64,000 nucleotides of DNA from Actinomycetota bacterium (GTDB lineage Bacteria; Actinomycetota; JAHEXW01; JAGVPG01), in assembly GCA_020052375.1 (NCBI GenBank), contig JAGVPG010000034.1, positions 7,660 through 71,659 on the forward strand, written 5' to 3'. Positions 16,587 to 47,650 of the stretch are shown here, one piece after another; within the stretch, counting starts at the first letter, position 1; each line of letters starts with the position of its first letter. A program made the position numbers and the translations under genes. The notes under the pieces are model-generated. The model searched no databases. It saw nothing but the letters and a program-made list of their open reading frames with translations, and was not told the origin of the DNA.

Positions 16587-16661
16587 TGGTGGAGGTGGGG
16601 GGATTCGAACCCCCGACCTCTGCGATGCGAACGCAGCGCTCTCCCGCTGAGCTACACCCCC
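16587..16661 (-). tRNA. tRNA-Ala (anticodon CGC)
   Basis: The reverse complement folds by hand into a cloverleaf: acceptor GGGGGTG/CACCTCC with G3:U70, D-arm GCTC...GAGC, anticodon stem CTGCG/CGCAG, loop TTCGCAT and T-arm GGGGG-TTCGAAT-CCCCC. A CCA end is encoded. Confidence 0.8.
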
Positions 16662-16690
16662 ACAGATGATAATTCTAACATATGTATTCC

Positions 16691-16752
16691 CGTGTCGTTG
16701 CGAGGGAGCGAAGCGACCGAAGCAAACTACGCAAAAAGTGAGTGCTCCAACG
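16691..16752. repeat. Family C repeat CGTGTCGTTGCGAGG-(hairpin)-GAAGCAAACTACGCAAAAAGTGAGTGC, left copy
   Basis: Inverted copies lie at 44540-44612 and 47505-47587. A partial copy with a CCCCCGAAGGGGG hairpin lies at 16788-16830. Confidence 0.7.
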
Positions 16753-16994
16753 CACAGCATGTTTATGTAGCCGCCGACCCGACGACTCTGTCGTCGTTGC
16801 GAGCCCCCGAAGGGGGTGAAGCAATCTCATGCTCCTCTAAGAATTACCTCTCGTTTGACGAGGGAGGATTAAGGCGGGGTGGCTTCCTGTTTGAGGTTCC
16901 AAAATGGAACCTCAATAAGTCAATGCGCTCCCTTTCTATTCGCGTAGACTATAGTCTATAGTGGAACCATGAAAAACACCTTGACTGTAGGCAC

Positions 16995-17483
16995 ATGAAA
17001 CCTCTTGTCAGTATATTGCTCGTAGCCGGTTGCGGATTGTGGGTGTTTATCGGATGGCGTATAAATCCGGAAAAGACGCGGCTGGCCTTGAAGGAAGCGT
17101 TAAGGCAATTCATCCTCATCCTCCCGTTTCTTATCGCGGCGTTCATCCTCGTCGGGATCATCAAGGTCTTTCCTCCCAAGGAATATCTGCACTTTGACCT
17201 CAAGTCGGTTCGCGGCACCATCCTGGGATTGATCATTGCGGCGTTTGCCGGAAGCATCCTATCCGGACCGCCGGTTGCTGTGTACCCGCTGGCAAAGACG
17301 ATCCTCGCGAACGGCGCCGGAGTGGCGGGTGTTGCTACATTCATTCTCGCCTGGACCGCGGTCGGTACTGTGACACTGCCTCTGGAGATCAAGCTTTTCG
17401 GCACGAAGTTTGCGCTGACCAGATGGCTTGTCATGCTCGTGATATCAGTTGTCATCGGGCTTCTGATGGGGCTGATATTATGA
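16995..17483 (+). CDS. Predicted permease, N-terminal half (DUF318/ArsP-like split permease)
   Basis: A four-TM 162-aa protein whose GAGVAGVATFILAWTAVGTVTLPLEIKLFG region is paralogous to the following ORF. Such permeases usually exist as one ~300-aa protein. Confidence 0.45.
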   Translation: MKPLVSILLVAGCGLWVFIGWRINPEKTRLALKEALRQFILILPFLIAAFILVGIIKVFPPKEYLHFDLKSVRGTILGLIIAAFAGSILSGPPVAVYPLAKTILANGAGVAGVATFILAWTAVGTVTLPLEIKLFGTKFALTRWLVMLVISVVIGLLMGLIL

Positions 17484-17980
17484 AGTTCAAACAGTTCGCC
17501 CGCGACAACTGGCCGATTGTATTGGTGCTCATCGCGTTGCTGGTCGTGATCTCCAGAAGGTTCGACAAGGTCGGAGAGACACTTTCCATCGGTTTCAAAG
17601 CCATGTGGGATATCACAGCCATCCTTCTCCCCATCTTTCTATTCATCGGGTTCTTCTCCGCCTGGATGGACGAGAAACGCCTTGTCAGGATGTTCGGCGG
17701 AAAGGTCACTATCAGAGAGTTTTTCTACGCGTCGGTTGTCGGCACGTCCTGGGTCGGACCGCTTGCCAGCTTGATGCCGCTTTTAAAGACCATGCTCGAC
17801 AAAGGCGCAAGCACAGCGGTCGTCGCAACCATCCTGGCGACCTTTGCCATCAAAGTCCCCTTCATCCCGCTGGAGATCAAACTGCTCGGCTGGCAGTTCA
17901 CCGCCCTACATAACGGCTTGATGCTAGCCGCCGCCCCCCTCGTCGGCCTCATCATGCAACGCGTGTCAGTAAGAAAGTGA
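17480..17980 (+). CDS. Predicted permease, C-terminal half (paralogous to 16995-17483)
   Basis: GASTAVVATILATFAIKVPFIPLEIKLLG aligns with the preceding ORF. The start is called at ATG 17480 overlapping its stop (ATGA). Confidence 0.45.
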   Translation: MKFKQFARDNWPIVLVLIALLVVISRRFDKVGETLSIGFKAMWDITAILLPIFLFIGFFSAWMDEKRLVRMFGGKVTIREFFYASVVGTSWVGPLASLMPLLKTMLDKGASTAVVATILATFAIKVPFIPLEIKLLGWQFTALHNGLMLAAAPLVGLIMQRVSVRK

Positions 17981-18021
17981 GTGCCGCAACGCACATCAAT
18001 ATTTCAAAACACCTTATAAGC

Positions 18022-19236
18022 TTAAATGAGTGGATTGGTTCCTTCATTAAGTATCTCTAAGTATCGGCTATACGCATAGTACCTGTTGCGTGATTTACCG
18101 GTTATTTCCTTTAAGATACCTATCTTCTCAAGTTTAGAAATAAGTGTTGTGGCCGTCTGTTTTGTAACGTCGAGTTTATGGGCGACCTCACTCACATTTA
18201 CTATCGGTGCTGTAAACAACCAGTCAAGAAGTATGATAGCGGAAGAACTGGAGATGCCGGAGTTCACTATTTTTTGTGTATCGGCTTTTTGGAGCGAGAT
18301 TATTTGCTTCGCGGAGGATGCTGCCTGGTCTGACACTTCAAGAATACCTTTCAGGAAGAAATCGACCCACTCTTCATAAGCGTCTTTATCTCGCACCTTA
18401 GACAGTAGATCGTAGTATTCCTGGCGGTTACGTTTCAGGTAGTAACTTAAGTAAAGAAGGGGTCGGTTTAGAATATCCTGCCAGCATAGATAGAAAGTGA
18501 TCAACAGTCTCCCTATACGTCCGTTACCGTCCAGGAATGGATGGATCGTCTCAAACTGATAATGTATTAGCGCGCATTTGACCAGTGGCGGCATCTTACT
18601 ATCTGAATGGACGAACTTCTCAAAGTCACTCATCGCGTCGATAACATCTACCGGAGGTGGCGGAACGAATGTCGCGTCGGCAAGCAGAGCTCCGCTAGGC
18701 CCGATCCAATTCTGGCTTTTTCTGAATTGGCCGGGGTCTTTATCGCTGCCGCGGACACCTGCCATTAAGACACCATGTATCTCACGGATCAGTCTAAGAG
18801 AAAACGGCAGATCCTGAAGTCTTTCTAAACCATGGTTCATCGCTTTTACATAGTTTATTACCTCTGCAACGTCATCGACACCTTTTATCGGTTTAGTGAG
18901 AGCTTCAAACTCAAGTACATCTATAAGTGATGATTGTGTTCCTTCTATTTGTGAGCTTAGTACCGCTTCTTTTTTTACAAACATAGCGACAAAAAGATCT
19001 GCATTGGGAAGGATGTAGGAAATACCGTCTAGTCTTGCAAGAGCTCGATCGGCATTCGATAAAAGAACAAGCATATCCTGGTCCAGAGCGATTTGCGGTA
19101 CCGGGGGTAAAGATTTTGGTATGAATGCCGAGTATCCGGCAGATTGCTGTACATAATAGCCACTTCGTTCGCCCAAGATGCCTCCTTCTATTCTAGTTAG
19201 TAAAGTAAAATTGATGATACTTGTATTTTGAGTCAT
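18022..19236 (-). CDS. Fic family protein (adenylyltransferase/AMPylator family) with a C-terminal winged-helix domain
   Basis: The canonical Fic motif HPFLDGNGRIGRLL is present. The C-terminal ~70 aa, ...VSEVAHKLDVTKQTATTLISKLEKIGILKE, is wHTH-like. Confidence 0.85.
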   Translation of the reverse strand: MTQNTSIINFTLLTRIEGGILGERSGYYVQQSAGYSAFIPKSLPPVPQIALDQDMLVLLSNADRALARLDGISYILPNADLFVAMFVKKEAVLSSQIEGTQSSLIDVLEFEALTKPIKGVDDVAEVINYVKAMNHGLERLQDLPFSLRLIREIHGVLMAGVRGSDKDPGQFRKSQNWIGPSGALLADATFVPPPPVDVIDAMSDFEKFVHSDSKMPPLVKCALIHYQFETIHPFLDGNGRIGRLLITFYLCWQDILNRPLLYLSYYLKRNRQEYYDLLSKVRDKDAYEEWVDFFLKGILEVSDQAASSAKQIISLQKADTQKIVNSGISSSSAIILLDWLFTAPIVNVSEVAHKLDVTKQTATTLISKLEKIGILKEITGKSRNRYYAYSRYLEILNEGTNPLI

Positions 19237-19340: not shown

Positions 19341-19715
19341 ATGAAAAGTATCTTTTTTTACATGGCTGGGGCTTTGACGATGATCTGGGGCATAGCGCAC
19401 TTGTTCCCGACCAGGAATGTGGTCAGGGATTTCGGGGAAATCAGTCAGGATAACAAACACATAATCACCATGGAATGGATCATCGAAGGTGTCATACTGA
19501 TCTTCTTGGGCGTGCTATTGATCCTGGTGACATCGATCAGTCCGATGGCTGCGGTTTCTACCGCTGTTTACTGGTCCGTCTTCGTTATGCTGAACGTTCT
19601 TTCAATAGTATCGATATTTACCGGTTTCAAAGTGAACTTCCTTCCGTTCAAACTCTGTCCGGTCATATTCACGATCTCCGCAGCACTGATCCTCATCGGC
19701 ATCATAATTAAATGA
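19341..19715 (+). CDS. Small four-TM membrane protein, function unknown
   Basis: A 124-aa hydrophobic ORF divergent from Fic. It ends in a family B hairpin. Confidence 0.4.
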   Translation: MKSIFFYMAGALTMIWGIAHLFPTRNVVRDFGEISQDNKHIITMEWIIEGVILIFLGVLLILVTSISPMAAVSTAVYWSVFVMLNVLSIVSIFTGFKVNFLPFKLCPVIFTISAALILIGIIIK

Positions 19716-19763
19716 TCTTGTAGCAGCCGACCTTCAGGTCGGTCACATCTTGCCTCATATCTG

Positions 19764-20621
19764 CTAAGGAGTTGTATCTTCTATAATTACCGGTTGTGGA
19801 GGCGGGCTGGAAGGCATGGGCGGGTAGCGAGTTCTGGACGGGACTGTACCCGAGTAACCGCTGTTAGAACTAGAAGTACTCGATGACCCACTGCTAGAAC
19901 TGGTGATTACTAATGATTCGGTTGTGAAACTATTTACGCCGTCTGTCCAGCTGCCATCATCTGCCAAAGCTGTCCAGGTTATAGTGTAATCAGTTCCATA
20001 GCTAAGTTGCCCGAATGTGAAAGTGACTTGCTTTTTATCCGGACTCCACTGCGGTGCGCCAAGCGGAACCGGACTCATCATGATCATGTCTTTGAGTGGC
20101 TTATCAGAGGTATAAGTGATCTTGCCGACATCTATGCTAATCCCTTGAGAGCCATTCGGGATATCGGTCGTTATTTGGGGTGAAGTAGGTGTCCTGAACT
20201 CCACAATGAATGGTTTTTTCTCCAGCAAAGAATCGGGACATTCTCCAAGAAGTCCGCTATAGTCTTCTAGTTTAACCCTCATCGTCCGGCCTTGTGGCCA
20301 GTAGTTAAGGCGAGAAATATAGATAGTCCTTTTGTTTACTGACAAGCTGTATTTAAACGGTATTTCTATTTCCGCGTTCTTCTCATCGACGTAGCATGCT
20401 TTTAGGATCAGTTTATCCGGATCGAGGCAACAAGAGGTTTCGATCTCGACAGTAGTTGTGGCTTTTACGACCTTATTTTTTTCCGGCTGGAATTTAACAA
20501 CATACGCTAGCGCTGGTAGCGAGGTAGCTTGATTGTTGTTCAGCGCAATAAAAGTAATTATTACTGCCGGTAGTGCAATCACTAAAGCTACCGGCCAGAT
20601 CAATTTCGGATTATTAAACAT
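19764..20621 (-). CDS. Membrane-anchored secreted protein with a Ser/Pro-rich C-terminal tail, function unknown
   Basis: An N-terminal TM or signal (LIWPVALVIALPAVIITFIAL) and a C-terminal SSSGSSSTSSSNSGYSG...PPMPSSPPPQP low-complexity tail. Confidence 0.4.
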   Translation of the reverse strand: MFNNPKLIWPVALVIALPAVIITFIALNNNQATSLPALAYVVKFQPEKNKVVKATTTVEIETSCCLDPDKLILKACYVDEKNAEIEIPFKYSLSVNKRTIYISRLNYWPQGRTMRVKLEDYSGLLGECPDSLLEKKPFIVEFRTPTSPQITTDIPNGSQGISIDVGKITYTSDKPLKDMIMMSPVPLGAPQWSPDKKQVTFTFGQLSYGTDYTITWTALADDGSWTDGVNSFTTESLVITSSSSGSSSTSSSNSGYSGTVPSRTRYPPMPSSPPPQPVIIEDTTP

Positions 20622-20906
20622 TCAACCACCATCCGCTCATTATTTGTTATATCTTATGAAAACCACAAATATATGTCAACGCTCTATCGTAGAATCAGGA
20701 TTAATCCAGGTTAGCGAGTGTGGAATGTTCCCCGAATTGCAGTTTGCGAATCGCCAATTATTTTCTAATTGCCGACCTTCAGGTCGGCTGATCTCTGTAT
20801 GTAAAAAGACCAAATAAGTATTTTTTAAGTCATGAAATATGAGTTTGACCTATTTCAACTTAAACCTAAAACTTGAAATAAGAAACCGAAGTACTTACTA
20901 CCGCTA

Positions 20907-20966
20907 TATTCAAGACATCTTGAATACAAATGTGATTAGGCTTCCTTATTCAAGACATCTTGAATA
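20907..20966. promoter_or_regulatory. Two copies of the 20-bp inverted repeat TATTCAAGACATCTTGAATA, spaced 40 bp apart, upstream of the DUF169 gene
   Basis: Copies at 20907-20926 and 20947-20966. The arms TATTCAAGA/TCTTGAATA are perfect complements. Confidence 0.5.
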
Positions 20967-21010
20967 AGCCACCTGCTCCACTCTACTGCGCTCTATGCTA
21001 GACTTTTCCC

Positions 21011-21751
21011 ATGAAGAGCAATCTCGCACGTATGATTAAACTCAAGACATCGCCAGTCGTTGTTCTTTGGACCGATGAGAAACCGGCTGACGCGATCCAG
21101 TGCAAGGAAGGGAAATGGGCTTGCGTCATATCGTTCCTCGTCCAAGCCGCCAAGGGAAAAACGGTCGTATTCGATGAGAGGACGGTCACCTGCCGAGGAG
21201 GCAAGACTGGCTTAGGATTCGGCCGCTACGAGCCCGGCTCGATAGAATATTTCCTCTCAACAGGGGAAAAGGGCGAGGAAGGCGAGCGCTACTGGAAAAC
21301 TCCTGAACTCGCTAGGTCCTTCATCGAAAGCCTGCCCGAATTGAAAGTGCCCACAAAATACGTCGTCTTGAAACCTCTCGAGCAGCTTGAAGAAGGCGAG
21401 ACACCCAAAGCGGTCGTTTTCCTTGTAAACCCGGACCAGCTATCGGCTCTCATCACGCTATCCAACTACGACCGGCCTACAGGCGACAATGTGGTCCACT
21501 ACGCCGGCGCCGGCTGCCACAGCACGGTCCTGTTCCCGATCCTCGAAGCAGATTCCAATCAACCAAAAGCAATAATCGGCCTGACCGATATCTCCGCCCG
21601 CAAAGTCATCGACAAAGACATCCTCTCCTTCAGCGTCCCCTACAAACGCTTCCTCGAACTGGAATCAAACGCAGAAGACAGCTTCCTGAGGACAGATGAA
21701 TGGAAAAGCATAGCTAGGCGGTCTTCCTCCCCCTTGAAGGGGGAGGAATAA
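21011..21751 (+). CDS. DUF169-family protein (uncharacterised, COG2043-like)
   Basis: WTDEKPADAIQCKEGKWACVISFLVQAAKGKTVVFDERTVTCRGGKTGLGFG is a Cys pattern and GLGFG motif recalled from DUF169 proteins. The C-terminus reads into a family A repeat. Confidence 0.55.
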   Translation: MKSNLARMIKLKTSPVVVLWTDEKPADAIQCKEGKWACVISFLVQAAKGKTVVFDERTVTCRGGKTGLGFGRYEPGSIEYFLSTGEKGEEGERYWKTPELARSFIESLPELKVPTKYVVLKPLEQLEEGETPKAVVFLVNPDQLSALITLSNYDRPTGDNVVHYAGAGCHSTVLFPILEADSNQPKAIIGLTDISARKVIDKDILSFSVPYKRFLELESNAEDSFLRTDEWKSIARRSSSPLKGEE

Positions 21752-21779
21752 AGGTGGGGGTGGGTTTTCTTTCCGTTTC

Positions 21780-24209
21780 CTAACTCTTGTCTTTTATCTT
21801 AGAGAGGAACCTGTCAAATATTTTCTCAGACATCTGAAACCAGCTTCCGACTAATATCAGGTAGAAACCGGCGAAGCCGACGAATGGCGCAAGACGGAAC
21901 TGAACAGAAGAAACGTTGGTCAAATAGGCGATGGTAAGAAGTATTGCCGGCCCGACGATGACGCCGAACTGGTCAGCCCTTTCAGCCCACTTAGGATCTT
22001 TGACTGTGATCTTCGCTCTTCCTTTTCTGATCAATGATATGAACGGCAGAGCGGTCAGAAAGCCGCCTACAGTTATCGCGTAGAAGATCCACCAATTTTC
22101 GAATGGGAAGGGCCTGGGTTCGCTCATTCCCAGATGAACAAGCTCGGCGCCGTAGACGCCGATTATCAAGGCCTCCAGGAACTCCAAAGTAAACTGGGCC
22201 GAGCGCGAGCCCTCTTGGACCAGCAAGCTTGAATACTGTTGAACATTCTGACTCACGTGCATGCCAAGCATATCAAGACGCTCGACTTTATGAAGAAGGT
22301 TCCGGTAGAGGCTTTCCAGATGGAACACGTGATTGGTCTTCTCGATCAAATCGAAGAAGAGAGAACTGCCGCCCTTTCTGCTTAGCGGATCCTCGATAGT
22401 CTCCGCGAGAGCTATTTTACGATGGTCGATCCCCCTGGTGACATCGGCAAGTCCCTCGATCACTTCGGAAAACTCTTCTTCTAAGCTCTTCTCCTTGAGA
22501 ACCTCAAGCGCGGCTGAGATGCTCCTTATATCATGGGTCACTAAATGGTCTGAAGTGGCATACGCGTACCAGAGGATCCGCTGCCACTGAATGGTGTCAC
22601 TCAGTTCATCCAGATACTTATACACATTGGCCATCTCTGGTACGAGCCGCACCTCATTTGCGTTACCGGGTGCGTAGTATACACATAGCGCGCTTCTTAT
22701 GTGGACGGCCATATGGACGAGATCGGAATAAAAAACATTCTCGAGAGACCTGATAGCGGGCTCCCAGTCCGATCTGATTACTACCCATTTTGATTTCATG
22801 AGGACTCTGACAAGATCTTTCTTGTATCTCGCAAACGTGTTACTGAAGTGCTCAACGACTTGGTCTGGTGTTGAGGCCGAGTTCTTGAAGGGACTCGGAG
22901 CGCTTAATAATGTTGATACATAGGGGTGCTCCTCAATGCTTGGAGATAAGGATGGAAAGGTCAGGTTTGGTATTGTGCTCATCAGTTGTTCTTTAAGGAT
23001 GATCTCGCTGCGCTCCGGGCGTTTCCTTCGCTCGGGCCGGTTGACAAACCGGACTATGTCTTCATCCTGCAGCAATGCTTGACTTAGTTCCGCCAAAAAG
23101 ACGTCCCGGGTGATGTGCTGGAAATACTCAAACATGGAAGACGCTGAATCCCTCGATTCTTTCCAGAGAAGGCGCGGCATATGTTCGCGAGAGAAGCCAC
23201 GATCAAGGTTCTCGATGTCTACGATGTCGTCGACCGTTAGCTCTCCATTTATTAGTGTTACCTGGTCAACAGCGGTACGTAGACGGTTCCGGATGAGATC
23301 TTTTGTTTCAAGAGATGCGGGGTATTTCTCAAGCAAGGTATCGATGCCAACCATCGATCGCTTCTTTACCGCATCCAAAATCGCCTCTCGTAGCTCTTGG
23401 GCTAGTTTTGTTGTCTTATCGGCAGGAGACGGGATTGCCGCGCTCTTGAGTTCCATGGTTGTGAATATGATCTCGTCGACGAGCTCCTTTAGGCCCTGCT
23501 CATTGGCTAGACGAACTCCCAGTCGTACACAACCGAAGCCCGTAGCCAGTAGTCGAATAGTCGACGCAATACGGATTCCGGGTACGTCTCTAAACTCTGA
23601 ACTGGAAGGGAGCTTTGCACTTATATCGGGGAGTATACTTGGATTCTCTATGGCCAGGCTCGCAGCTTTAAATCTGGTCTCGATGTAAGGCTGTTTGCGC
23701 TCCAGATAACCGCGGGTGCCCTTGCTATGGCCGGAGTGATATTTGGCTTGTGTGAGAAGAGGGACCCGACTTTCGTTTATCTTTTTCGACACGAACTTCA
23801 TCATGTTCTCGGGAGCTTTGGCTTCGTGTTCCCGGATCAGTTCCGATAATTCGAGATAGAGAAGATCCTGTCCGACTTCGCGAAACTCATCAGAAGTGGC
23901 CGGTAGCTCTCTGACCAGCGCCCTGACCTCGCCTGCGAGACTCTGATTTGATCTGCGCCGATTCGGATTGCGACTAGTACCACTAATACACCGGTCCAGT
24001 ATCTCCTTTGCTTTTCTTACAGGAGGCGCTTCTGTACCGAAGGCGGATTCCAAGCGGTCTTGTGCGGCCAGGAGGGACGATTGCAGATCGTATTCTTGTT
24101 CGTTTAGGAAGCCGGTTATGCCGTGGCGAAACGTCTCCCATCGGTCGACTCTGAAAGGATAGAGGAACTGGATAGTCGCCTTGTTAGTGTAAAACTGCTC
24201 GTGCTGCAT
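21780..24209 (-). CDS. Large hypothetical protein (809 aa): a soluble alpha-rich N-terminal ~650 aa plus three C-terminal TM helices
   Basis: A long clean ORF with no motif I can assign. The C-terminus FPFENWWIFYAITVGGFLTALPFISLI...IVGPAILLTIAYL...FVGFAGFYLILVGSWF is hydrophobic. Confidence 0.5.
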   Translation of the reverse strand: MQHEQFYTNKATIQFLYPFRVDRWETFRHGITGFLNEQEYDLQSSLLAAQDRLESAFGTEAPPVRKAKEILDRCISGTSRNPNRRRSNQSLAGEVRALVRELPATSDEFREVGQDLLYLELSELIREHEAKAPENMMKFVSKKINESRVPLLTQAKYHSGHSKGTRGYLERKQPYIETRFKAASLAIENPSILPDISAKLPSSSEFRDVPGIRIASTIRLLATGFGCVRLGVRLANEQGLKELVDEIIFTTMELKSAAIPSPADKTTKLAQELREAILDAVKKRSMVGIDTLLEKYPASLETKDLIRNRLRTAVDQVTLINGELTVDDIVDIENLDRGFSREHMPRLLWKESRDSASSMFEYFQHITRDVFLAELSQALLQDEDIVRFVNRPERRKRPERSEIILKEQLMSTIPNLTFPSLSPSIEEHPYVSTLLSAPSPFKNSASTPDQVVEHFSNTFARYKKDLVRVLMKSKWVVIRSDWEPAIRSLENVFYSDLVHMAVHIRSALCVYYAPGNANEVRLVPEMANVYKYLDELSDTIQWQRILWYAYATSDHLVTHDIRSISAALEVLKEKSLEEEFSEVIEGLADVTRGIDHRKIALAETIEDPLSRKGGSSLFFDLIEKTNHVFHLESLYRNLLHKVERLDMLGMHVSQNVQQYSSLLVQEGSRSAQFTLEFLEALIIGVYGAELVHLGMSEPRPFPFENWWIFYAITVGGFLTALPFISLIRKGRAKITVKDPKWAERADQFGVIVGPAILLTIAYLTNVSSVQFRLAPFVGFAGFYLILVGSWFQMSEKIFDRFLSKIKDKS

Positions 24210-24287
24210 AATAGTCGTCCCGCCGAAATCATCTGCCTGAAAGTCAACCTAATATATTACTTTTGCACATGTGACGTCAATACGTGA

Positions 24288-24403
24288 TGTAGCAGCCGAC
24301 CTTCAGGTCGGCTCCCTAAAAGTGATGACTTTCAATAATATTCCCTCCCCCTTTAAGCCTGCCTGCCGGCAGGCAGGGGGGAGAATCAAAGAGGGGGTAG
24401 CAA
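24288..24403. repeat. Composite repeat unit: family B hairpin TGTAGCAGCCGACCTTCAGGTCGGC + CTCCCTAAAAGTGATGACTTTCAATAATATT + family A C/G palindrome
   Basis: Near-identical composite units occur at 26548-26640 and 26998-27089. Confidence 0.8.
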
Positions 24404-24456
24404 ACGCCAATAAGCATCTGCTGTGATATAATAAATGCAGATAAAAGAGGTATAAG

Positions 24457-24666
24457 ATGATAAAAAACACTAGTGTTTGGAACGATATTGAACGCGAACA
24501 GATGAGAATGAGAACCGTGGACTACGCCTCAAACCTAAGGATCTTCGAATCCTTATGGAAAGAAGCAATAGCACTCCGCGCCCTTCCGCTTTCCGACCCC
24601 CTAGCCGGGATAGAAACAGATATCCAAATGGCCAAGATCCTCAACTCATGTTCCAAGACATCCTAG
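24457..24666 (+). CDS. Small hypothetical protein (69 aa) overlapping the start of the downstream nucleotidyltransferase-fold gene
   Basis: An ORF with a 19-nt overlap onto the 24648 start. No recognisable motif. Confidence 0.3.
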   Translation: MIKNTSVWNDIEREQMRMRTVDYASNLRIFESLWKEAIALRALPLSDPLAGIETDIQMAKILNSCSKTS

Positions 24667-25202: not shown

Positions 25203-25403
25203 AAACAGGTCATTCAGGGGCACCGAAGAATCCACCAAGAAGAGAGTGCTCCATCGCACAATATATTAGTTTTCCTCCCCCTTCAAGGGGGAGAATCAAA
25301 GAGGGGGTGGCTCTCCTCACTTTGTAACCATATCTTAACGATACTGTAACCTTGCCTTAACGGTACTGGTCGATGATGTTATCGTTAAGAAAAGGAGGAC
25401 GAT

Positions 25404-26552: not shown

Positions 26553-26852
26553 CAGCCGACCTTCAGGTCGGCTCCCTAAAAGTGATGACTTTCAATAATA
26601 TTTTCTCCCCCTTCAAGGGGGAGAATCAAAGAGGGGGTGGCAAACACCGCAAACGTGCAGCTCAAAGGTGTCATCCTGAGGAAGGTCGCCGAAGGCGACC
26701 GACGAAGGACCTAAGAGAAAGCTTACGTGTCCGAATCAACCCAAGTTAAAGAGAATGTAGCGTTCCTTCGAATTACGGCTTGCCAAGTGCTTTCTTATAG
26801 CTGACTTGCTAAGTGTTACAAAACTGACATTTCTAGACCTGACCCCAAAATC

Positions 26853-38775: not shown

Positions 38776-39053
38776 AGTCTAAGATTAAGTCTCGAAATCC
38801 TTGGTTTATAAATCATCCTTGATAGAAAAGCAATGAGATATTTGTTATTGTACTAGTTCACATCAATTTATAGAGCCTCGTGGGCACATTTCCAATCCCA
38901 ATCTGATCCTTCCAGTTCTTGAACATGCTCTACAAGATACTTTGAAACATATTTATCCGGTTTGATGATTGTCGATAGAATCGGGTAGTGTTCCTCGAGC
39001 AGCAGGCGTATAAGTGGTTCATGTTCGGTATTAAAAAGGATAACGTACAATAT

Positions 39054-40390: not shown

Positions 40391-41047
40391 GATTCTTGAC
40401 ACTACCTTAAAAAGATCGCGATCTATCAGTTTTTTCTTCGTTGCATATAAGACTGAATTGCAGTAGGAAATAAGAAGCTCTACATAACCATAGTATATAG
40501 CCCAAGCCTTATCTTCTTTGGTCTTCTGATCGTAAATAAGTGTGAAACAGTTCGAATTCCACTGCTTGGCGAGCGTTAAGACTTCCGGATACTGCATTCT
40601 ATAATCAACCATCTTGTCATATCGCGCTATTATCTCTTGTTGCATCAGGTTTCTTTGCGACTGTTTGTTCTGGCGAAGTTGTAACCAGGCGATTGTGAGA
40701 GAGACAATAGCAGATACAGAAGCTGCGACAAGTGCCGTGATTATCTGGTTCTTCATTATTCTTCCTCATTTTAGGCGTTGATGTGATTATATAGTCTGAA
40801 CAAACAGAGGGTTGAAAGTCAAGATTCTAGATCTTAACATCCGCTTTGCTCCATTTTGACTGTTTTCCGTGTTCGAGATACTTCCATACGTCAATTAATG
40901 GAAGCGACCATATGATGTGACCTGCGGTGCTTCCATACTCTAGTGTATTGGTGCGTGGAAGTGGGGAGGGAAAGCCGACCTGAAGGTCGGCGGCTACAAG
41001 ATCCTACTGATTGCGGCTTGCGAATCGCTTCTTGCTTCTGGCTCTTT

Positions 41048-41083
41048 CTGTTCACTGTTCATTGTTCACAGTTCACTAATCGC
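41048..41083. repeat. Four direct 7-bp repeats TGTTCAC TGTTCAT TGTTCAC AGTTCAC (family E) upstream of the DUF3795 gene
   Basis: A second copy lies at 44624-44660 and a degenerate inverted copy at 47262-47320, upstream of the minus-strand gene that starts at 47244. Confidence 0.6.
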
Positions 41084-41103
41084 TCCAGTGCTATAATCCT
41101 CCT

Positions 41104-41676
41104 ATGGATGCTCAATACGTTGAAATCGGAGTTTGTGGGCTTTCGTGCAGGTTGTGTCCTGCTTACATAAGGACGACCAAGAGCCGGTGTCCCGGATGTA
41201 AGACCGAATTCCGGTTTGGTGGACCCTGCAAGATGCTTCACTGCAAGCAGCTTAAAGAGCAGGGGATCGAGTTCTGCTGGGATTGCGGTGTTAGCGATAG
41301 CTGTGAGATATGGGCCAAGCATCGCGAAATGGGCAAACAATACGATTCTCCCAAGTGCTACCAGACTTTGGAGAAAGACATAGCTTTTGCTCAAGAACAC
41401 AGAGTCAGGGAGTTCGAGAAGACTCAAAAAGCCCGCGAGAAACTGCTCCGGACTATGATCGACGAGTTCAATGAGGGAAGGTCTAAAAGCTATTTCTGCA
41501 TAGCGGCGACTGTAATGAATATTGACGAGTTGGAGCAGGCGATAAAGAAGGCGAGAACAGATGTCAAGGATGTCAAAGATGTCGAGGATGTCAAGGAGAA
41601 GGCTAAGATTATGCATATGATCCTGGATGAGATAGCGGAAGAGAAAGGATATCTGCTGAAGTTGAGGAAGAGATAA
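41104..41676 (+). CDS. DUF3795-family cysteine-rich protein
   Basis: CGLSCRLCPAY...CPGCK...CKMLHC...CWDCGVSDSCEIW is the DUF3795 Cys pattern. A tandem GCAAGA repeat follows the stop. Confidence 0.55.
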   Translation: MDAQYVEIGVCGLSCRLCPAYIRTTKSRCPGCKTEFRFGGPCKMLHCKQLKEQGIEFCWDCGVSDSCEIWAKHREMGKQYDSPKCYQTLEKDIAFAQEHRVREFEKTQKAREKLLRTMIDEFNEGRSKSYFCIAATVMNIDELEQAIKKARTDVKDVKDVEDVKEKAKIMHMILDEIAEEKGYLLKLRKR

Positions 41677-41900
41677 TAGCAGCAAGAAGCAAGAAGCAAG
41701 AAGCAAAAAACGAGCCGTAATCCGGGGAACATTCTATTCATCACAGGATGCCAATGAATTTAGATTAAACAAAGACAATTAACTTCCGTTGTATGGTGGT
41801 AATTATCGTTGATTATTGCAAGAATATACTTAAATCTGGTATAAACGTAGAACGTAAGAATAATAAAACGACATTGAAAGGCAACTGATAGGCATATCAT

Positions 41901-42917
41901 ATGAATATGACACCAAAGAAGCGTAGCATACTACCCCTGATTATTATCATTGCAGTTATAATGTTGCTTGTCGGGTGTGTGGGCTGCGCTTTCCTCTTCT
42001 ATTGGTTGGCCAAGGAAGCGCCTTTAGACATACCAAGCCAAAGTGTGAAAGTAAAAGCGGAAGAGGTCTTCGAGGTCACTTTAGAAACATCCAATACGAG
42101 TGATAAAAAGATTGTCATCAATCAAGTCGATCTAGTACATAAAGAAATCGACAAGAACATTATCTTTACTGAAACGAAACCGGCCTATGTTAAAGAGCAA
42201 GTTGACGATATTATGGGGCGTACGCAAAGTTTGTACTTCAAACCTGTAGTGACAGTCGAACCGGGTAAGAAGAAGGAAATCACATTTCGGGGGCAGGCAC
42301 TCAAGGAAGGATATTATACGATCGAGGTAACGTTTTGGACAAATGAGGGTCAGGCATCCTCGAATATCAAAGTAATAGTAAAAGGCTCGGCAGGCCAGGG
42401 ATGGAAGACTGTTCAAACTAAAGACGGAGATGTTTCTATCGAGTGTCCAAGTAGCTGGATGGAAATACGAGGAGATAAAACCGAGCTTCCGCCGAGTGTT
42501 CTCTTTGGTGTTATCGGACCGTATGATCCAAACTCACGTTTCTCAACGACGTCGCTCTTATACCGAGTGCCGGTGGCCACACAGGATGTCGAATCTCTCT
42601 TTAAATCATTAGAACAGACATATAGCAGCGGCAAAAGTGGGGATGTGACCGTTAAAGATTTCAAATTAATCGAGGAGAAGCCCATCGAGCTTTCATACGG
42701 TAACGCTCGTAGGAAGGTCTACTCCGCTGTGATTCCGGGACAAAACCAAGAGATAGAGGTGACCATCGACGTTCTGGCCGTTATTGCTGGAGACGCTGGT
42801 TACATTATAGAGATCGATACCGCTCGAGGTGTGTATAACGATCAGTCAGTAATATTCGAAAGGATCTTTAAAAGTCTACGTATCGGGCAAGCGAGTGGCC
42901 AAGAGAAGAGTTTCTAG
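41901..42917 (+). CDS. Membrane-anchored secreted protein, function unknown (338 aa)
   Basis: An N-terminal TM (LPLIIIIAVIMLLVGCVGCAFLFYWL) and a beta-rich extracytoplasmic region. Confidence 0.4.
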   Translation: MNMTPKKRSILPLIIIIAVIMLLVGCVGCAFLFYWLAKEAPLDIPSQSVKVKAEEVFEVTLETSNTSDKKIVINQVDLVHKEIDKNIIFTETKPAYVKEQVDDIMGRTQSLYFKPVVTVEPGKKKEITFRGQALKEGYYTIEVTFWTNEGQASSNIKVIVKGSAGQGWKTVQTKDGDVSIECPSSWMEIRGDKTELPPSVLFGVIGPYDPNSRFSTTSLLYRVPVATQDVESLFKSLEQTYSSGKSGDVTVKDFKLIEEKPIELSYGNARRKVYSAVIPGQNQEIEVTIDVLAVIAGDAGYIIEIDTARGVYNDQSVIFERIFKSLRIGQASGQEKSF

Positions 42918-42947
42918 TAGAGAGCGGAGAAACCTATCGATCAGAGG

Positions 42948-43634
42948 ATGGAATACCCGTTAGCTTTCGATTATCTCTTTAAGGATCCGCACTGGAAGAG
43001 AAAGTATTTCTTTGCTTGTTTTCTGCTTGTTTTAAGCCCTCTGATATTTCCATTATTCTATCTCAATGGATATATAGTAAGAGTGATCAGAGAGGTGCGC
43101 GACGGGCGCAGGCTCGGTCTCCCGGCGTGGAACAAGACAGACGAGCTGCTAGTCGACGGCTTTCGTTACGTTGTCCTATCCTTCTGCTGGTACTTGCCGT
43201 TGATCCTCGCATACCTGACGATGTACATCCTGATATTTGTCTTGATCGCCCGAGAGCCGAACCAGGATTTAGCTACATTCGAGCTTTCCATAATGATTAT
43301 GGCCATTCCTATCGGAATGCTTATAAGTCTTTTTTTTATGCTCGTATCCGGCTTGTTACCGGGAGCGCAGATGGTCTTCGCGAATACAGACTCGCTTGCG
43401 CAAAGTCTTTCGCCTATCCGTACCGTTAAGGCCATATGGGTCGACGCTCTACACTACGCTCCTATACCGTTTATCAGGTATCTTCTGAACATGGTGGCAA
43501 TGCAACTGGGAGTGATATCCTTTTACATCTTACTACCGCCCGCGCTCGTGTACGCAATGTTCGTGAACGCAAATATAAAAGGTCAGACATTGAACGTGTT
43601 AAACAATAATAGTCCAAAAAGGACGCGAATATGA
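42948..43634 (+). CDS. DUF4013-family membrane protein
   Basis: N-terminal YPLAFDYLFKDPHWKRKYFF...VIREVRDGR plus 5-6 TM helices, recalled as the DUF4013 pattern. Confidence 0.5.
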   Translation: MEYPLAFDYLFKDPHWKRKYFFACFLLVLSPLIFPLFYLNGYIVRVIREVRDGRRLGLPAWNKTDELLVDGFRYVVLSFCWYLPLILAYLTMYILIFVLIAREPNQDLATFELSIMIMAIPIGMLISLFFMLVSGLLPGAQMVFANTDSLAQSLSPIRTVKAIWVDALHYAPIPFIRYLLNMVAMQLGVISFYILLPPALVYAMFVNANIKGQTLNVLNNNSPKRTRI

Positions 43635-43650
43635 AAGGGGAAGAGGCGGC

Positions 43651-44364
43651 TTGAGCGATAAAGACATGGTCTACGGCTATAACTGGAGGGAAGCTATCAC
43701 ATATATAATAAAGGACCCGAAGTGGATCTCGACAGTGTTTTTTCTGGGCCTTTGCATGTTGCTGTGGTGGTTGTTATTCCCCGTGTTCGTGTTCAGGGGA
43801 TATATTATCAGGACTATCCGCCATGTCGCTGACGGAAACATAAGCCTGCCTTCTCTTTCCAATTCCGGTGAGATGGTTGAGAAGGGATTCAAGATGTTCT
43901 TGGTTGATCTCGCTTATATGTGGCCCGGGTACCTCCTAACGTTTATTTCCATGATCTTTTCATTTGGCTTCATTGCTTTGATTGCAAGTTCGGAACCGAG
44001 CGCACTAGCTATTATGCTTGTCATGTTTGGTTCGCTTCTACAGATGATCGGCTCCTTACTGCTCATAGTGATCATACCGTTTACATGGACTGCTCTTTTA
44101 TGGTTCACCGCGACCAATAGCATGAAAGCTTGTTTCAGGCCAAAGCTGATGTGGCAATTCTTTAAGAAGTACTTCAAAGACTTTGTCATCATTTATGTGA
44201 TCAATATTGCTGTCGGTTATATCGCGTCATTGGGTATGTTCTTGTTCTTCATAGGTTATGCATTCACGCTAGCCTACGCTACGCTTGTGAGCGCTTACCT
44301 GTACGGCAAGCTTCTAGAGAAATCGCGCACGGACATACCGCCTGTTCAAAGCTTGGCTTCCTAA
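43651..44364 (+). CDS. DUF4013-family membrane protein (tandem paralog)
   Basis: WREAITYIIKDPKWISTVFF...IIRTIRHVADGN parallels the upstream ORF. Confidence 0.5.
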   Translation: MSDKDMVYGYNWREAITYIIKDPKWISTVFFLGLCMLLWWLLFPVFVFRGYIIRTIRHVADGNISLPSLSNSGEMVEKGFKMFLVDLAYMWPGYLLTFISMIFSFGFIALIASSEPSALAIMLVMFGSLLQMIGSLLLIVIIPFTWTALLWFTATNSMKACFRPKLMWQFFKKYFKDFVIIYVINIAVGYIASLGMFLFFIGYAFTLAYATLVSAYLYGKLLEKSRTDIPPVQSLAS

Positions 44365-44539
44365 CATGGGCTAAGATATGGGATCAGATAGAATGATGCA
44401 TTAAGATTTGGGAAAGGGGTATATTAATGGCAGGGGTCATCTATGAAAAAACACCCTCTATCAAGTAGATCACAACCAATTGCCCCACCTTACTGCTTTT
44501 TCGTAGGTCCTTAGTTGGTCGCCTAAAGACGACCTCTCA

Positions 44540-44612
44540 CGGTTACACCTTTTATGCATGTTTACGTAGTTTGCTTCGTCAGCCGCCCTTCGGGCGGCTT
44601 CCTCGCAACGAC
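44540..44612. repeat. Family C repeat (inverted orientation, with GCCGCCCTTCGGGCGGC hairpin), followed by the family E heptamer array at 44624-44660
   Basis: Reverse complement ...GTGTCGTTGCGAGGAAGCCGCCCGAAGGGCGGCTGACGAAGCAAACTACGTAAACATG matches the copies at 16691 and 47505. Confidence 0.7.
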
Positions 44613-44684
44613 ACTTTTTTACCCTGTTCACTGTTCATTGTTCACCGTTCACTAATTGCGGAAGAGAGGAAGCGCGGAACCGGT

Positions 44685-44864
44685 TTATGCTTCTTTGTTC
44701 CTTTGCATGAGATTTTCGAGATTCATAAGAGCGATAAAAGCGATGCCGAGTAAAATAAGACCACTATCGTAGTCTTGTTGAAGAAGATTCCATATTCCAG
44801 GCCCTGCAAGCATAACGATACCAATGCCTAGAACAACAAGAATAACCGGATTGGTCCTTTTCAT
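44685..44864 (-). CDS. Small two-TM membrane protein (59 aa)
   Basis: ATG at 44864 is preceded by a GGGAGG RBS; MKRTNPVILVVLGIGIVMLAGPGIW... The longer track ORF to 44993 lacks an RBS. Confidence 0.4.
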   Translation of the reverse strand: MKRTNPVILVVLGIGIVMLAGPGIWNLLQQDYDSGLILLGIAFIALMNLENLMQRNKEA

Positions 44865-45048
44865 GTATGCCTCCCTTTTTCCTAGATAGTATTGATAATC
44901 AACTGATGTTGTCAAATACGACAATGAAATAGGTGGGGAAGGAAAATGAGGTATTGGATTGACAAGATGGTTGTTAAGGCATAGAATACTCAACGTATTG
45001 AGATAATTAACTCAATACGTTGAGTATATTGTTAAAAGGGGTGTTTAC

Positions 45049-46242
45049 GTGCGCGATCTGTATGTTCGATCGGTCAATAATATTATAAAAAAGAGGCTCC
45101 AAGAGCCTCGTAGATTCATCCAGGTTCTATACGGTCCGAGACAAGTAGGAAAGACTACCGCTATTCTTCAGGTGCTTGAGGGGATCAGGATAGCGCATTC
45201 ATATGCTTCCGCCGACAAACCACTCCTGCAAGATGTCGACTGGGTACAAGATGAATGGCAAAAAGCTCGCGGTCTATTAGCGAAGAATAAACAAGCTGTT
45301 CTTGTGCTCGATGAGATCCAAAAAGTGCCGGAATGGTCGGAAGTAGTGAAACGGCTATGGGATGAAGATACAAGACAAGGCAGACTACTTCATGTTGTAT
45401 TGCTTGGTTCGTCTCCGTTTCTCATCCAAAAGGGTTTAACGGAGAGTTTGGCCGGCCGTTTTGAGGTCATACGCATTCCGCATTGGTCGTTTGTCGAGTG
45501 CCGGGACTATTTCGGTTGGGACGCAGATGTTTATATTTATTATGGCGGGTATCCGGGTGCTGCGCCTCTAATAGAGGACCGCTCACGCTGGGTCAGGTAT
45601 ATAGAGGATGCTTTAATCGAGACGACCGTATCGCGGGACATCTTGCTGTTGACGCGCATCGATAAACCGGCGTTGTTAAGGCGCTTATTCTATCTGGCTT
45701 GCCTGTACTCCGGACAGATTGTGACATATGAGAGTATGCTCGGGCAGCTTCACGAAAAAGGAAACACGACAACCCTAGCACACTATCTAGATCTCCTAGA
45801 CGGTGTCGGTTTTGTGAGAGGTCTTCAAAAATACTCTGGTTCGATAATCCGCCAACGCGCTTCCAGCCCCAAATTGCAGGTCTATAACAACGCTTTGATG
45901 ACTTCTCAATCCGATACAAGCTTTGATGAAGCGCGAGAGGACAAACCGTACTGGGGGAGGCTTGTTGAATCAGCAGTTGGAGCACATCTTCTAAGGGGTG
46001 TTATGGAACACAGATTCGAACTTTTTTATTGGCGCGAGAAGAGCAACGAGGTCGATTTTGTTATCCGTCATAGAAAAGGGGTAACGGCGGTTGAAGTTAA
46101 AACAGGATCGAGTGAACGTGCTCGACGCGGTTTCTCGGCATTCAGCCGGAACTATAAGGCAGATAAAATGATTATTATAGGACCGGAAGGTATACCGGTC
46201 GAAGACTTCCTCTTGGCCGAACCGGACGCTTTTATGAGCTAG
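45049..46242 (+). CDS. AAA-superfamily ATPase with DUF4143 C-terminal domain (COG1373-like)
   Basis: Walker A GPRQVGKTT and Walker B VLVLDEIQ are present. The C-terminal ...WREKSNEVDFVI... region is DUF4143-like. The stop TAG is embedded in a family B repeat. Confidence 0.7.
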   Translation: MRDLYVRSVNNIIKKRLQEPRRFIQVLYGPRQVGKTTAILQVLEGIRIAHSYASADKPLLQDVDWVQDEWQKARGLLAKNKQAVLVLDEIQKVPEWSEVVKRLWDEDTRQGRLLHVVLLGSSPFLIQKGLTESLAGRFEVIRIPHWSFVECRDYFGWDADVYIYYGGYPGAAPLIEDRSRWVRYIEDALIETTVSRDILLLTRIDKPALLRRLFYLACLYSGQIVTYESMLGQLHEKGNTTTLAHYLDLLDGVGFVRGLQKYSGSIIRQRASSPKLQVYNNALMTSQSDTSFDEAREDKPYWGRLVESAVGAHLLRGVMEHRFELFYWREKSNEVDFVIRHRKGVTAVEVKTGSSERARRGFSAFSRNYKADKMIIIGPEGIPVEDFLLAEPDAFMS

Positions 46243-46483
46243 CCGACCTAAAGGTCGGCGGCTACATTTAGTCTACCTAACCCCCTCCCTGGATCCCTCC
46301 CCCTTTGAAATGGGGAGGGAAACGTTTCATTCTCTTTTACCTTTCTAAACAATGTGCATTGTGCGAGGAGTAGGCGAGAGTATGGCATTATACATACTGT
46401 CTCTGGGCTAGGTTGAAGAATTCTTCGAGCGAGATATCTTTAGCGAGAAGATTTACTTCAACCTAGTCCAGGTACACACTTTT
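46243..46483. repeat. Mosaic repeat block: family B hairpin (46246) + family A C/G palindrome (46281) + family D 90-bp element (46390-46483, GGTTGAAGAATTCTTCGAGCG...TTCAACCTAG)
   Basis: The same three modules recur at 47345-47530 on the other side of gene 46552-47244. Confidence 0.75.
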
Positions 46484-46551
46484 CATGTCTTTCGCTGACT
46501 GAGAGCAATCACTTTTAAAGGGAGGCCGACCTGAAGGTCGGCGGCTACGTG

Positions 46552-47244
46552 TTAGATGTTGCGTTGGACGGCGAGCCATTCCTGGCGGATCTCGTCCCGG
46601 AGCCGGCGGTACTCGGCGGCCTTTACGTTCCTGGCCGCGTTGTTCTCATCCAGTTCCTTATCCTCTTCCATGTTCTCGGTTTTGAATTCGTCTGTAGTTA
46701 TTGAGCCGTTGGCCGCATTCCTATAGGTTGTGATGAACTTCCTATCTATGTCGATGCTGGTCTGAAGCAGGGTCCTAAAATCGTTTTCAACGGCATTTCC
46801 CTCGGCTGCTTTGACGGCTAGGTTTGCGGATGATGACTTGAGCGACACGGGCTCGACTTTTGCCGACTCGGATGCCAGTCTCATCACCAGGCCGTTCTCC
46901 TGCATTACAGCGGTGTTTATCTCGTCGACCAATGACTGTTGCTTGTCGACGTTGGCCTCGACATCGTCGATCGCTTTTAAGACCTCGGTGTTGTCGCCGG
47001 CATTGGCGGCGGCCTCCATCTTGTCCACCAGCGTGTTCCGCTCTTGTTCGAGGGTCGAGAATTCGTCGAGCTTTGTGTTGACCTTGTTAGCTGCAGCTAT
47101 GTATTGATTGTAGACGTCCTTGAATCCAAGAGCCGACTGCCTCTGCTGGTTTCGCCTGTTGAGCAGATAGACCGCCCCTGCCAGGCAGCAGGCAAGCAAG
47201 ACAACAACAAGGATGACTGCGATTATGACCAGTATCTTTTTCAT
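46552..47244 (-). CDS. Membrane-anchored coiled-coil protein, function unknown (230 aa)
   Basis: An N-terminal TM (ILVIIAVILVVVLLACCLAGAVYLL) followed by an alpha-helical, Ala/Glu/Asn-rich periplasmic region. The mosaic repeat blocks flank it on both sides. Confidence 0.4.
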   Translation of the reverse strand: MKKILVIIAVILVVVLLACCLAGAVYLLNRRNQQRQSALGFKDVYNQYIAAANKVNTKLDEFSTLEQERNTLVDKMEAAANAGDNTEVLKAIDDVEANVDKQQSLVDEINTAVMQENGLVMRLASESAKVEPVSLKSSSANLAVKAAEGNAVENDFRTLLQTSIDIDRKFITTYRNAANGSITTDEFKTENMEEDKELDENNAARNVKAAEYRRLRDEIRQEWLAVQRNI

Positions 47245-47344
47245 GGCACTCCTTTGTTAGTGAATTAGTGAATGTTGAATTTATTATAGTGTAAAATCGG
47301 TGAACAGTGAATAAAGGGAATAAAGTTAATAAGAGCGGAGAGCG

Positions 47345-47590
47345 GGAAGAACCAACCCCCACCCTTGATCCCTCCCCCTTAGAAAAGGGGAGGGAAACAC
47401 AGAGGAAAGCCGACCTGAAGGTCGGCTGCTACACTATACATACTGTGTTCGGGGAGGTTGAAGAATTCTTCGAGCGGGTATCTTTAGCGAGAAGATTTAC
47501 TTTAACCTAGTCCGGACACTCACTTTTTTACGTTTGCATAGTTTGCTTCGTCGCGCTGGCGGACATTGCTCCTCGCAACGACACGAGGGT
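47345..47590. repeat. Mosaic repeat block: family A (47354) + family B (47405) + family D (47436-47530) + family C inverted copy (47505-47587)
   Basis: Matches the modules at 46243-46483 and 16691-16752. It marks the right edge of the accessory island, immediately upstream of hemB. Confidence 0.75.
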
Positions 47591-47650
47591 AATGTGATAT
47601 CATGTTTGGCGTAGTCATTTAAGCTTTTTACCTTCTAGGAGGCACATATC

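Follow-up and report, generated by a model that had tools for sequence, protein, structure and literature searches.

A probable long-lived accessory and defence hotspot between hemD and hemB in an uncultured bacterial clade

Additive core defence hotspots, flanked by core markers and by a tRNA or tmRNA gene and of lower GC content, have been described in Pseudomonas aeruginosa as cDHS1 and cDHS2 (PMC10250203), and integration hotspots have been described in E. coli (PMC10121019). The locus treated here lies in a 64,000-nucleotide (nt) stretch, called the window below, of a metagenomic contig of an Actinomycetota bacterium (assembly GCA_020052375.1, contig JAGVPG010000034.1, positions 7,660 to 71,659 of the forward strand). 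In this window the stop codon of hemD and the start codon of hemB, two genes of heme biosynthesis, are 31,071 nt apart, with a tRNA-Ala(CGC) gene and accessory genes between them. The interval is probably a long-lived, additive accessory and defence hotspot between core genes, present clade-wide. Its pattern fits that of the core defence hotspots because of the tRNA flank, the lower GC, the additive character and the defence-type cargo, including AbiE in a relative (L081). A previous reading of the window from its letters (the original prediction) had proposed that horizontally acquired DNA of ~31 kb, bounded by inverted copies of a ~60-bp repeat, splits an ancestral hem cluster beside this tRNA. 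The heme genes, the tRNA and the accessory content were all found where it had placed them. The split of a contiguous hem cluster and the foreign origin of the low-GC genes also stand, but a single insertion does not.

12800-16579, plus strand: left core flank hemA-hemC-cobA/hemD (Pfam), in the same synteny in all relatives examined
12800-14104, plus strand: hemA (Pfam)
14101-15036, plus strand: hemC (Pfam)
15044-16579, plus strand: cobA/hemD fusion of 511 amino acids (aa) (Pfam)
16587-16661, minus strand: tRNA-Ala(CGC) (ARAGORN), the sole tRNA found in the window
47651-51113, plus strand: right core flank hemB-ahbD-hemL, with multihaem cytochrome genes after it, in the same synteny in all relatives
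47651-48622, plus strand: hemB (Pfam)

A ccsA-like gene lies upstream of hemA in the window; ahbD scores 530 bits with TIGR04545 (cut-off 500), and NCBIfam also identifies hemL. In a scan of genome contigs for CobA/HemD, whose best species representatives share at most 46% identity and are informative on ancestral gene order only, hemD and hemB stand less than 500 nt apart in at least 14 loci that span several phyla; among them are the actinobacterial L001, with 220 nt (Ca. Hakubella), and L019, with 239 nt. About eight more loci have one gene between hemD and hemB. Judged from these gene orders, contiguous hemA-hemC-cobA/hemD-hemB(-ahbD-hemL) is a widespread arrangement. The closest named HemB homologues (71-79% identity) come from Actinomycetota, Ca. 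Aquicultor and Ca. Subteraquimicrobiales; because of these names a deep actinobacterial lineage is inferred, and the clade with the variable interval is probably actinobacterial.

Within this clade the flanks are constant and the content between them is not. L081, L088, L090, L091, L212 and L213 show conserved synteny, reading ccm-hemA-hemC-hemD to the left and hemB-ahbD-hemL-cytochromes to the right, while the interval measures 1,888 nt in L090, 6,064 nt in L213, at least 10 kb in L212 and 31,071 nt in the window, with different cargo each time. The gene orders of four relatives are given here, where R1 and R3 are short repeats treated below.

L090 (HemB 78% identical): hemD, 21 nt, tRNA-Ala on the plus strand, one HATPase_c_2/DUF4325 gene, hemB
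L213 (HemB 76% identical, 968-kb contig): hemD, tRNA-Ala on the plus strand, TauE, TusA, Sulf_transp, tRNA-Cys, Na_Ca_ex, hemB
L081: hemD, GGDEF gene on the minus strand, AbiEii/AbiEi on the minus strand (43% GC), tRNA-Ala on the minus strand, the contig ending inside this tRNA
L086 (HemB 89% identical): DUF4143 ATPase, DUF3795, R3, a 231-aa gene on the minus strand, R1, hemB

The CobA/HemD proteins of L081 and L082 are 78% and 77% identical to that of the window (74-77% at the nt level), and a minus-strand GGDEF gene follows hemD in both; L081 aligns to window positions 5401-16554 at 77% nt identity. L086, which probably comes from the same organism as L082, matches the window in blastn at 80% nt identity over 45074-46235, 79% over 41103-41670 and 70.5% over 46564-47229, with 80% in hemB-ahbD, and L087 has an orf230 homologue (73% nt) and R1 upstream of hemB. 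Since non-hem genes already follow hemD and precede hemB in the relatives at 77-81% nt identity, the split of the operon is older than the divergence of these lineages. The right-hand 6.5 kb of the interval contains at least three genes, namely DUF4143, DUF3795 and orf230, that on these alignments are old residents and have since been rearranged. L212 and L213, with identical HemB, are 100% identical over 15.9 kb from position 5051 and diverge fully upstream of it, where L212 has a 1553-aa gene (41.6% GC, no Pfam hit) and L213 has hemA-hemC-hemD-tRNA-Ala. Read from this alignment, the pair, which belongs to the same species, is a case of strain-level turnover within the hemD-hemB interval. The breakpoint at 5051 is itself located within a short repeat of the genome concerned. 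Among the seven short-read hemB contigs of relatives (L083-L089), six begin only 77-385 nt before hemB, the repeat-rich edges of the interval being places where assemblies break systematically. Contigs of the strains at 91-99% identity, which occur in samples ERZ27256953, JGI 3300031949 and SRR6449691, stop 80-200 nt ahead of hemB; the two relatives at 77-81% come from SRR22808026 and GCA_040961535.1.

The 3' end of a tRNA gene is the usual point of integration. In the window, 7 nt separate the tRNA-Ala 3' end (16587) from the stop codon of hemD, and this 3' end points away from the variable region, which is on the 5' side of the tRNA. The gene is 98-99% identical in relatives: L081 has it on the minus strand, whereas in L090 (8134-8208) and L213 (3958-4032) it follows hemD on the plus strand. 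The tRNA of the window and L081 is thus inverted relative to that of L090 and L213, and a second breakpoint of this inversion was not found. In L090 a 25-nt piece of the tRNA 3' end recurs without mismatch (8184-8208 and 8412-8436, 228 nt downstream), and in L213 with 24 of 25 nt identical (4008-4032 and 4339-4363, 331 nt downstream). Each of these looks like an old attachment (att) scar with almost nothing left between the sites. A search of metagenome contigs with a 71-nt tRNA-Ala pattern gave no match. Rfam labels the tRNA-Ala of the window and of L090 (8134-8208) as 'tmRNA' at 48.4 bits against a gathering score of 47; a real tmRNA was rejected, as the tRNA-like part of the tmRNA model out-scores the tRNA model within the clan. 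A stand-alone HemD of 267 aa with the HEM4 domain only is encoded in L090 (7309-8112) and L213 (3133-3936), in the same position as the cobA/hemD fusion of the window, L081, L082 and many outgroups.

Composition points to layers of different age in the interval. Windowed GC is 54-56% in the flanks against 37-42% across 27-39 kb, in agreement with the earlier remark that this part is AT-rich beside a core of ~55% GC. In a per-gene codon analysis, the GC content at third codon positions (GC3) is 0.68 +/- 0.04 in the core and spans 0.31-0.71 in the interval, where at least three classes are found among the genes listed here. IS denotes an insertion sequence and ORF an open reading frame.

16995-17980, plus strand: two overlapping half-size ArsP_1-type permease genes (Pfam; GC3 0.67 and 0.71)
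18022-19236, minus strand: Fic/SoFic-type protein (Pfam Fic_N and Fic; PADLOC SoFic, E=2.5e-126; GC3 0.42)
19341-26552: mixed segment of orf124, orf285, DUF169, an 809-aa orphan, a small ORF with a DUF6036 nucleotidyltransferase, and orf382 (GC3 0.46-0.65)
21780-24209, minus strand: 809-aa protein with C-terminal hydrophobic segments (GC3 0.57, near the core)
26853-27093, plus strand: 241-nt direct repeat (93%) of 26404-26644, a truncated second 3' end of orf382
27100-40960: low-GC block of ~12.5 kb plus an IS, containing the SIR2-like gene, the methyltransferase-NTPase-TPR gene, two adhesin-like genes, orf389 and a split gene
27195-28988, minus strand: SIR2-like gene (Pfam SIR2_2, 22.1 bits, under the gathering score of 24.5)
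29306-32578, plus strand: methyltransferase-NTPase-TPR gene (Pfam: methyltransferase domain and TPR repeats only)
32776-34230, minus strand: adhesin-like gene 1, in the low-GC block
34561-37554, plus strand: adhesin-like gene 2, in the low-GC block
37606-38775, plus strand: orf389, in the low-GC block
39052-40393, plus strand: IS256-family IS of ~1.34 kb (Pfam Transposase_mut, 1e-109; NCBIfam IS256, 358 bits against a cut-off of 150)
41104-47244: older right-hand segment of DUF3795, orf338, two DUF4013 genes, orf102, DUF4143 ATPase and orf230 (Pfam)

The ArsP halves, orf124, DUF169, orf382, the IS256 transposase and orf230 (0.70) are core-like in GC3. Intermediate values are found for the 809-aa orphan (0.57) and for DUF3795 and the two DUF4013 genes (0.57-0.60), and atypical ones for SoFic (0.42), orf285, the nucleotidyltransferase, orf338, DUF4143 (0.47) and orf102. 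A strongly low class (0.31-0.37) is formed by the SIR2-like gene, the methyltransferase-NTPase-TPR gene, both adhesin-like genes and orf389, which are contiguous at 27195-38775: five consecutive genes on both strands, 8-10 standard deviations under the core. Codon usage thus marks the genes at 27.2-38.8 kb as foreign, but not the interval as a whole, along which core-like genes are interleaved with atypical ones. The low-GC block also differs in repeat content, since copies of the short repeats R1, R2 and R3 were not found between 27.1 and 40.9 kb, though they are frequent on both sides. Its left edge coincides exactly with the second copy of the 241-nt duplication, which comprises the last ~50 codons of orf382 and a cluster of R1 and R2 repeats. 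On composition and repeats, the low-GC block is best read as the youngest layer of the interval.

The IS256 element is present in a single copy, has inverted ends of its own (ATCTTTCGCAC...) at 39052 and 40393 and is core-like in composition. It splits a minus-strand low-GC gene (40756-40394 and 39051-38868), and excising it restores an ORF of ~184 aa; no clear target duplication of 8-9 bp was seen at its ends. Because of this host-like composition and the interrupted low-GC gene, it came later than the low-GC block and is not the vehicle of the block.

The ~60-bp element, R3, was found at 16691-16752 and, inverted, at 47505-47587 as predicted, but it does not bound an island. The window has four copies, three at the ends and one internal, and the element is thus no exclusive mark of the two ends.

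16691-16752, plus strand: R3 copy A, with GTGTCGTTGCGAGG, a variable centre, and GAAGCAAACTA plus a tail
16789-16835, plus strand: R3 copy B, with the hairpin centre CCCCCGAAGGGGG
44561-44617, minus strand: R3 copy C, inside the region, with a homologous copy in L086 (1774-1830)
47505-47587, minus strand: R3 copy D, whose ~62-nt core is an insertion/deletion polymorphism among strains

Copies A and D, mutually inverted, lie ~30 nt from the tRNA and ~65 nt from hemB, respectively, and have in common the exact boxes CGTGTCGTTGCGAGG, GAAGCAAACTA and AAAAAGTGAGTG, far beyond chance. In the general architecture of R3, the invariant boxes GTCGTTGCGAG and GAAGCAAWCT flank a variable centre, usually a GC-rich hairpin. 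Metagenomes were searched with the pattern box1-N9-39-box2, and the resulting counts are lower bounds among the matches listed. R3 occurs in at least 149 copies on at least 120 metagenome contigs (L092-L211), with up to five copies per contig and contig GC of 33-68%. Conservation extends beyond the searched pattern: position -1 is T in 114 of 149 cases and position +1 is C in 128 of 148. Of the copies, 34% lie in long open frames compared with 76% of random positions. Arrays of 4-5 copies ~50 nt apart were seen in L094, L132 and L151. Copy D is present in strains L083 (98.7% nt identity) and L085 and absent from L084 (98% nt), L087 and L086, of which L087 and L086 still have the orf230 homologue directly upstream of hemB. 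Because copy D is absent where orf230 and hemB already adjoin, it is later than the neighbouring genes and cannot be a boundary of their acquisition. The original prediction had named a ubiquitous intergenic repeat as the finding that would speak against its island, and judged by this distribution R3 is a ubiquitous, mostly intergenic short element. It may be a MITE-like element (miniature inverted-repeat transposable element), a REP-like one (repetitive extragenic palindrome) or a protein-binding site; no Rfam family matches it, and a literature search by the repeat sequence gave only unrelated primer matches. An inversion of the interval driven by homologous recombination between copies A and D was considered and rejected, since the two share exact matches of 15, 11 and 12 nt at most and the hemB-side genes of relatives have the same orientation.

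R1 consists of TGTAGC followed by the palindrome GCCGACCTTCAGGTCGGC, the full form being TGTAGC(A/C)GCCGACCT(TC/GA)AGGTCGGC. Nine copies lie between 19.7 and 47.4 kb, and further copies are found in the relatives L086 and L087; R1 and R2 are scattered through the mixed segment at 19341-26552. Two R1 copies bracket the low-GC block.

26992-27022, plus strand: R1, left bracket of the low-GC block
40973-41003, minus strand: R1, right bracket of the low-GC block

These form a 31-nt inverted pair, 97% complementary, and this pair of REP-like hairpins is the sole feature found at the edges of the block. All five R1 copies left of the block (19707-27022) are on the plus strand and all four right of it (40961-47432) on the minus strand, and R3 is likewise split, with two plus-strand copies on the left and two minus-strand copies on the right. 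A recent inversion of the right arm as the cause of this split was rejected, as the repeats beside hemB are on the minus strand also in L086 and L087. No RAYT gene (REP-associated tyrosine transposase) was found in the 64-kb window. A GTTCAC-rich 36-nt repeat occurs in 94% identical copies at 41048-41083 and 44624-44659, as direct repeats around DUF3795, orf338, the two DUF4013 genes and R3, and also between hemB and ahbD in strain L085 (1184-1216); it may be connected with the fact that DUF3795 and DUF4143 are ordered differently in the window and L086.

Signatures of a mobile element other than the IS were sought throughout. Pfam detected no integrase or recombinase in the 30 ORFs at 11.9-49.7 kb, a range that has no unannotated gap longer than ~700 nt and in which the IS256 transposase is the only mobility gene found. 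Neither the 25-nt tRNA 3' end (up to 3 mismatches) nor a 15-mer of it (up to 2) is matched a second time in the 64 kb. No target-site duplication, in the form of a direct repeat of at least 8 nt, stands immediately outside R3 copies A and D, the shared direct 8-mers of the two end windows lying away from their edges. The edges of the low-GC block have no direct repeats, only inverted ones. No transposase matching the R3 ends was found, the ends of IS256 being unrelated to R3. With its 3' end abutting hemD and facing away, and with neither a partial copy nor an integrase in the window, the tRNA of the window is not a classical attachment site.

The cargo named in the original prediction (Fic, DUF169, the 809-aa orphan, the nucleotidyltransferase, adhesins, IS256, the DUF4013 pair and DUF4143) was confirmed with Pfam, NCBIfam and PADLOC. 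By family match the defence-type genes of the interval are SoFic, a candidate single-gene defence, and the DUF4143/AAA_14 ATPase, which corresponds to PADLOC PDC-S01 (E=1.8e-171); the SIR2-like gene is weakly supported. The second ArsP-like gene retrieved only itself in a homologue search, and the 809-aa protein has no match in Pfam, NCBIfam or PADLOC. The nucleotidyltransferase is of DUF6036 type with the small ORF directly upstream, and the adhesin-like proteins have SdrD_B, DUF11, PA14 and Big_1 domains (Pfam). The divergent pair formed by the SIR2-like and the methyltransferase-NTPase-TPR genes had been called SIR2/STAND. Its SIR2 half is backed transitively, in that a Ralstonia homologue (E=2e-15) passes the SIR2_2 threshold, but the STAND half was not assigned by any profile library, although a Walker-A-like GHALMGKS is seen in the protein sequence. 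The pair has no PADLOC system match, sequence searches of the PDB with the SIR2-like and STAND-like proteins gave no significant match, and the STAND-like protein has no relative among viral contigs. In a plasmid collection, relatives of the SIR2-like protein occur only on Ralstonia megaplasmids (tblastn; 27% identity over aa 14-237). The Ralstonia homologue (L214, 5926-9284) adjoins a TnsD/TniQ gene in a Tn7-like context and is partnered by a DUF2130 protein; a conserved SIR2-like/methyltransferase-NTPase-TPR pair was thus looked for and not found, the Ralstonia partner being different.

How the interval arose can be explained in several ways. One ~31-kb mobile island beside tRNA-Ala, with R3 as its terminal inverted repeats, would account for the inverted copies A and D near the tRNA and hemB, for the position of three of the four copies at the ends and for an interval mean GC under that of the flanks. 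This model is nevertheless largely refuted and very improbable: one R3 copy is internal, the family is ubiquitous in unrelated metagenomes over a wide range of GC, copy D is a strain indel, the window has no target duplication, cognate transposase, integrase or att repeat, and the composition is mosaic, with genes common to relatives at core-like divergence. A decayed single integrative element at tRNA-Ala (a genomic island, a prophage remnant or an integrative and conjugative element, ICE) that has lost its integrase gains something from the tRNA at one edge, from the att-like tRNA 3'-end repeats of L090 and L213 and from the role of tRNAs as common landing sites (PMC10250203, PMC10121019), and is still quite unlikely. 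In the window the tRNA has the region on its 5' side, the 64 kb contain no partial tRNA copy (up to 3 mismatches), no integrase was found in the 30 ORFs at 11.9-49.7 kb, at least three compositional classes are present, and the layers differ in apparent age, the right-hand genes being older than the split from relatives of 80% identity and the central block looking much younger.

Vertical inheritance of a native interval, whose low GC would come from gene-specific constraints, agrees with the core-like codon usage of the ArsP halves, DUF169, orf382 and orf230 and with the conservation of some genes in relatives; it is hard to credit given the GC3 of five consecutive genes on both strands at 8-10 standard deviations below the core, content that differs by lineage and strain between the same flanks, and the adjacency of hemD and hemB in outgroups. 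An assembly chimera at 27.1-40.95 kb could be suspected because the contig is metagenomic and the block is bracketed by short repeats and contains an IS, a typical cause of misjoins. Here too the chances are slight, since the bracketing repeats of only 26-31 nt are below typical assembly k-mers, two independent misjoins back into the same operon would be needed, and the IS256, which has the composition of the host, is flanked by the halves of one low-GC ORF, as expected of a true insertion inside the block. A further reading regards the interval as a clade-wide, integrase-free cassette-exchange site, in which R1 and R3 hairpins would mark and perhaps mediate the junctions and the low-GC pair would be a new two-gene defence system. 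It draws on the opposite R1 copies that bracket the youngest block, on the L212/L213 breakpoint, which is also in a short repeat, and on R3 itself, which is mobile, cross-phylum and undescribed in Rfam or the searched literature; this reading is doubtful, if less so than those above.

Under the favoured hotspot model, one or more integrase-mediated insertions at tRNA-Ala would have opened the hem operon in an ancestor, the att-like scars of L090 and L213 being a trace of them, and cassettes would then have been gained and lost independently in each lineage. In the lineage of the window, the tRNA would have been inverted and a GGDEF gene that two relatives retain would have been lost, while SoFic, the nucleotidyltransferase cassette, the DUF4143/PDC-S01 ATPase and others would have been gained. 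The genome's own short intergenic repeats would have colonised the older layers before, at last, the ~12.5-kb low-GC block arrived and the resident IS256 inserted into one of its genes. Several points weigh against the hotspot model. The relatives are short metagenomic contigs, most of which stop inside the tRNA or 80-390 nt short of hemB; the window content at 17-41 kb lies outside the contigs of close relatives, none of which covers the 5' side of the tRNA; and the att-like scars sit in more distant lineages, not in the window. The proposed order of events is drawn from composition and repeat content only, the putative defence roles rest on family membership, and the low-GC block rests on a metagenomic assembly.

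If the hotspot model is right, an essential biosynthetic operon can host a persistent accessory and defence hotspot across a whole uncultured clade, and hemD and hemB are conserved markers with which the hotspot may be fished from metagenomes and new cargo, including candidate defence genes, harvested. A caution also follows: where a genome is rich in repeats, finding short inverted copies at either end of a low-GC region is no evidence that a mobile element ends there. In practice the consequences are modest, as loci of this kind are already well established.

REP, BIME and REPIN repeats have a conserved GTAG tetranucleotide beside an imperfect palindrome and are mobilised by RAYT transposases. 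R1 matches this REP shape exactly, with GTAG and a palindrome in nine copies within 31 kb. R3 is REP-like in being short, mostly intergenic and multi-copy, with a hairpin centre and indel polymorphism, but unlike typical species-specific REP sequences it has two invariant boxes, a freely variable hairpin and hosts of 33-68% GC. The IS of the window resembles IS256 in passing the NCBIfam equivalog, in its length of ~1.34 kb and in its terminal inverted repeats, and is here a passenger in the low-GC block. With tRNA-integrated islands, ICEs and prophages the locus shares the adjacent tRNA and, in L090 and L213, 25-nt direct repeats of the tRNA 3' end; unlike them, the window has no integrase or att repeat, its variable region is 5' of the tRNA and its composition is mosaic. 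The closest likeness is to cDHS1/cDHS2 and the E. coli hotspots, in the core flanks, the tRNA on one side, the variable size and cargo, the lower GC and the defence-type genes. Those hotspots are known from hundreds of genomes, whereas the present one is known from a handful of metagenomic contigs, too few for occupancy statistics; it also has no integrase or other vehicle genes, its tRNA is inverted with the 3' end facing a core gene, and its flanks are the two halves of one biosynthetic operon (hemACD and hemB-ahbD-hemL). As tRNA-linked additive islands and defence hotspots are already well established, the locus is a further instance of them, and what is unusual here is a hotspot that lies inside a heme operon and persists across a clade.

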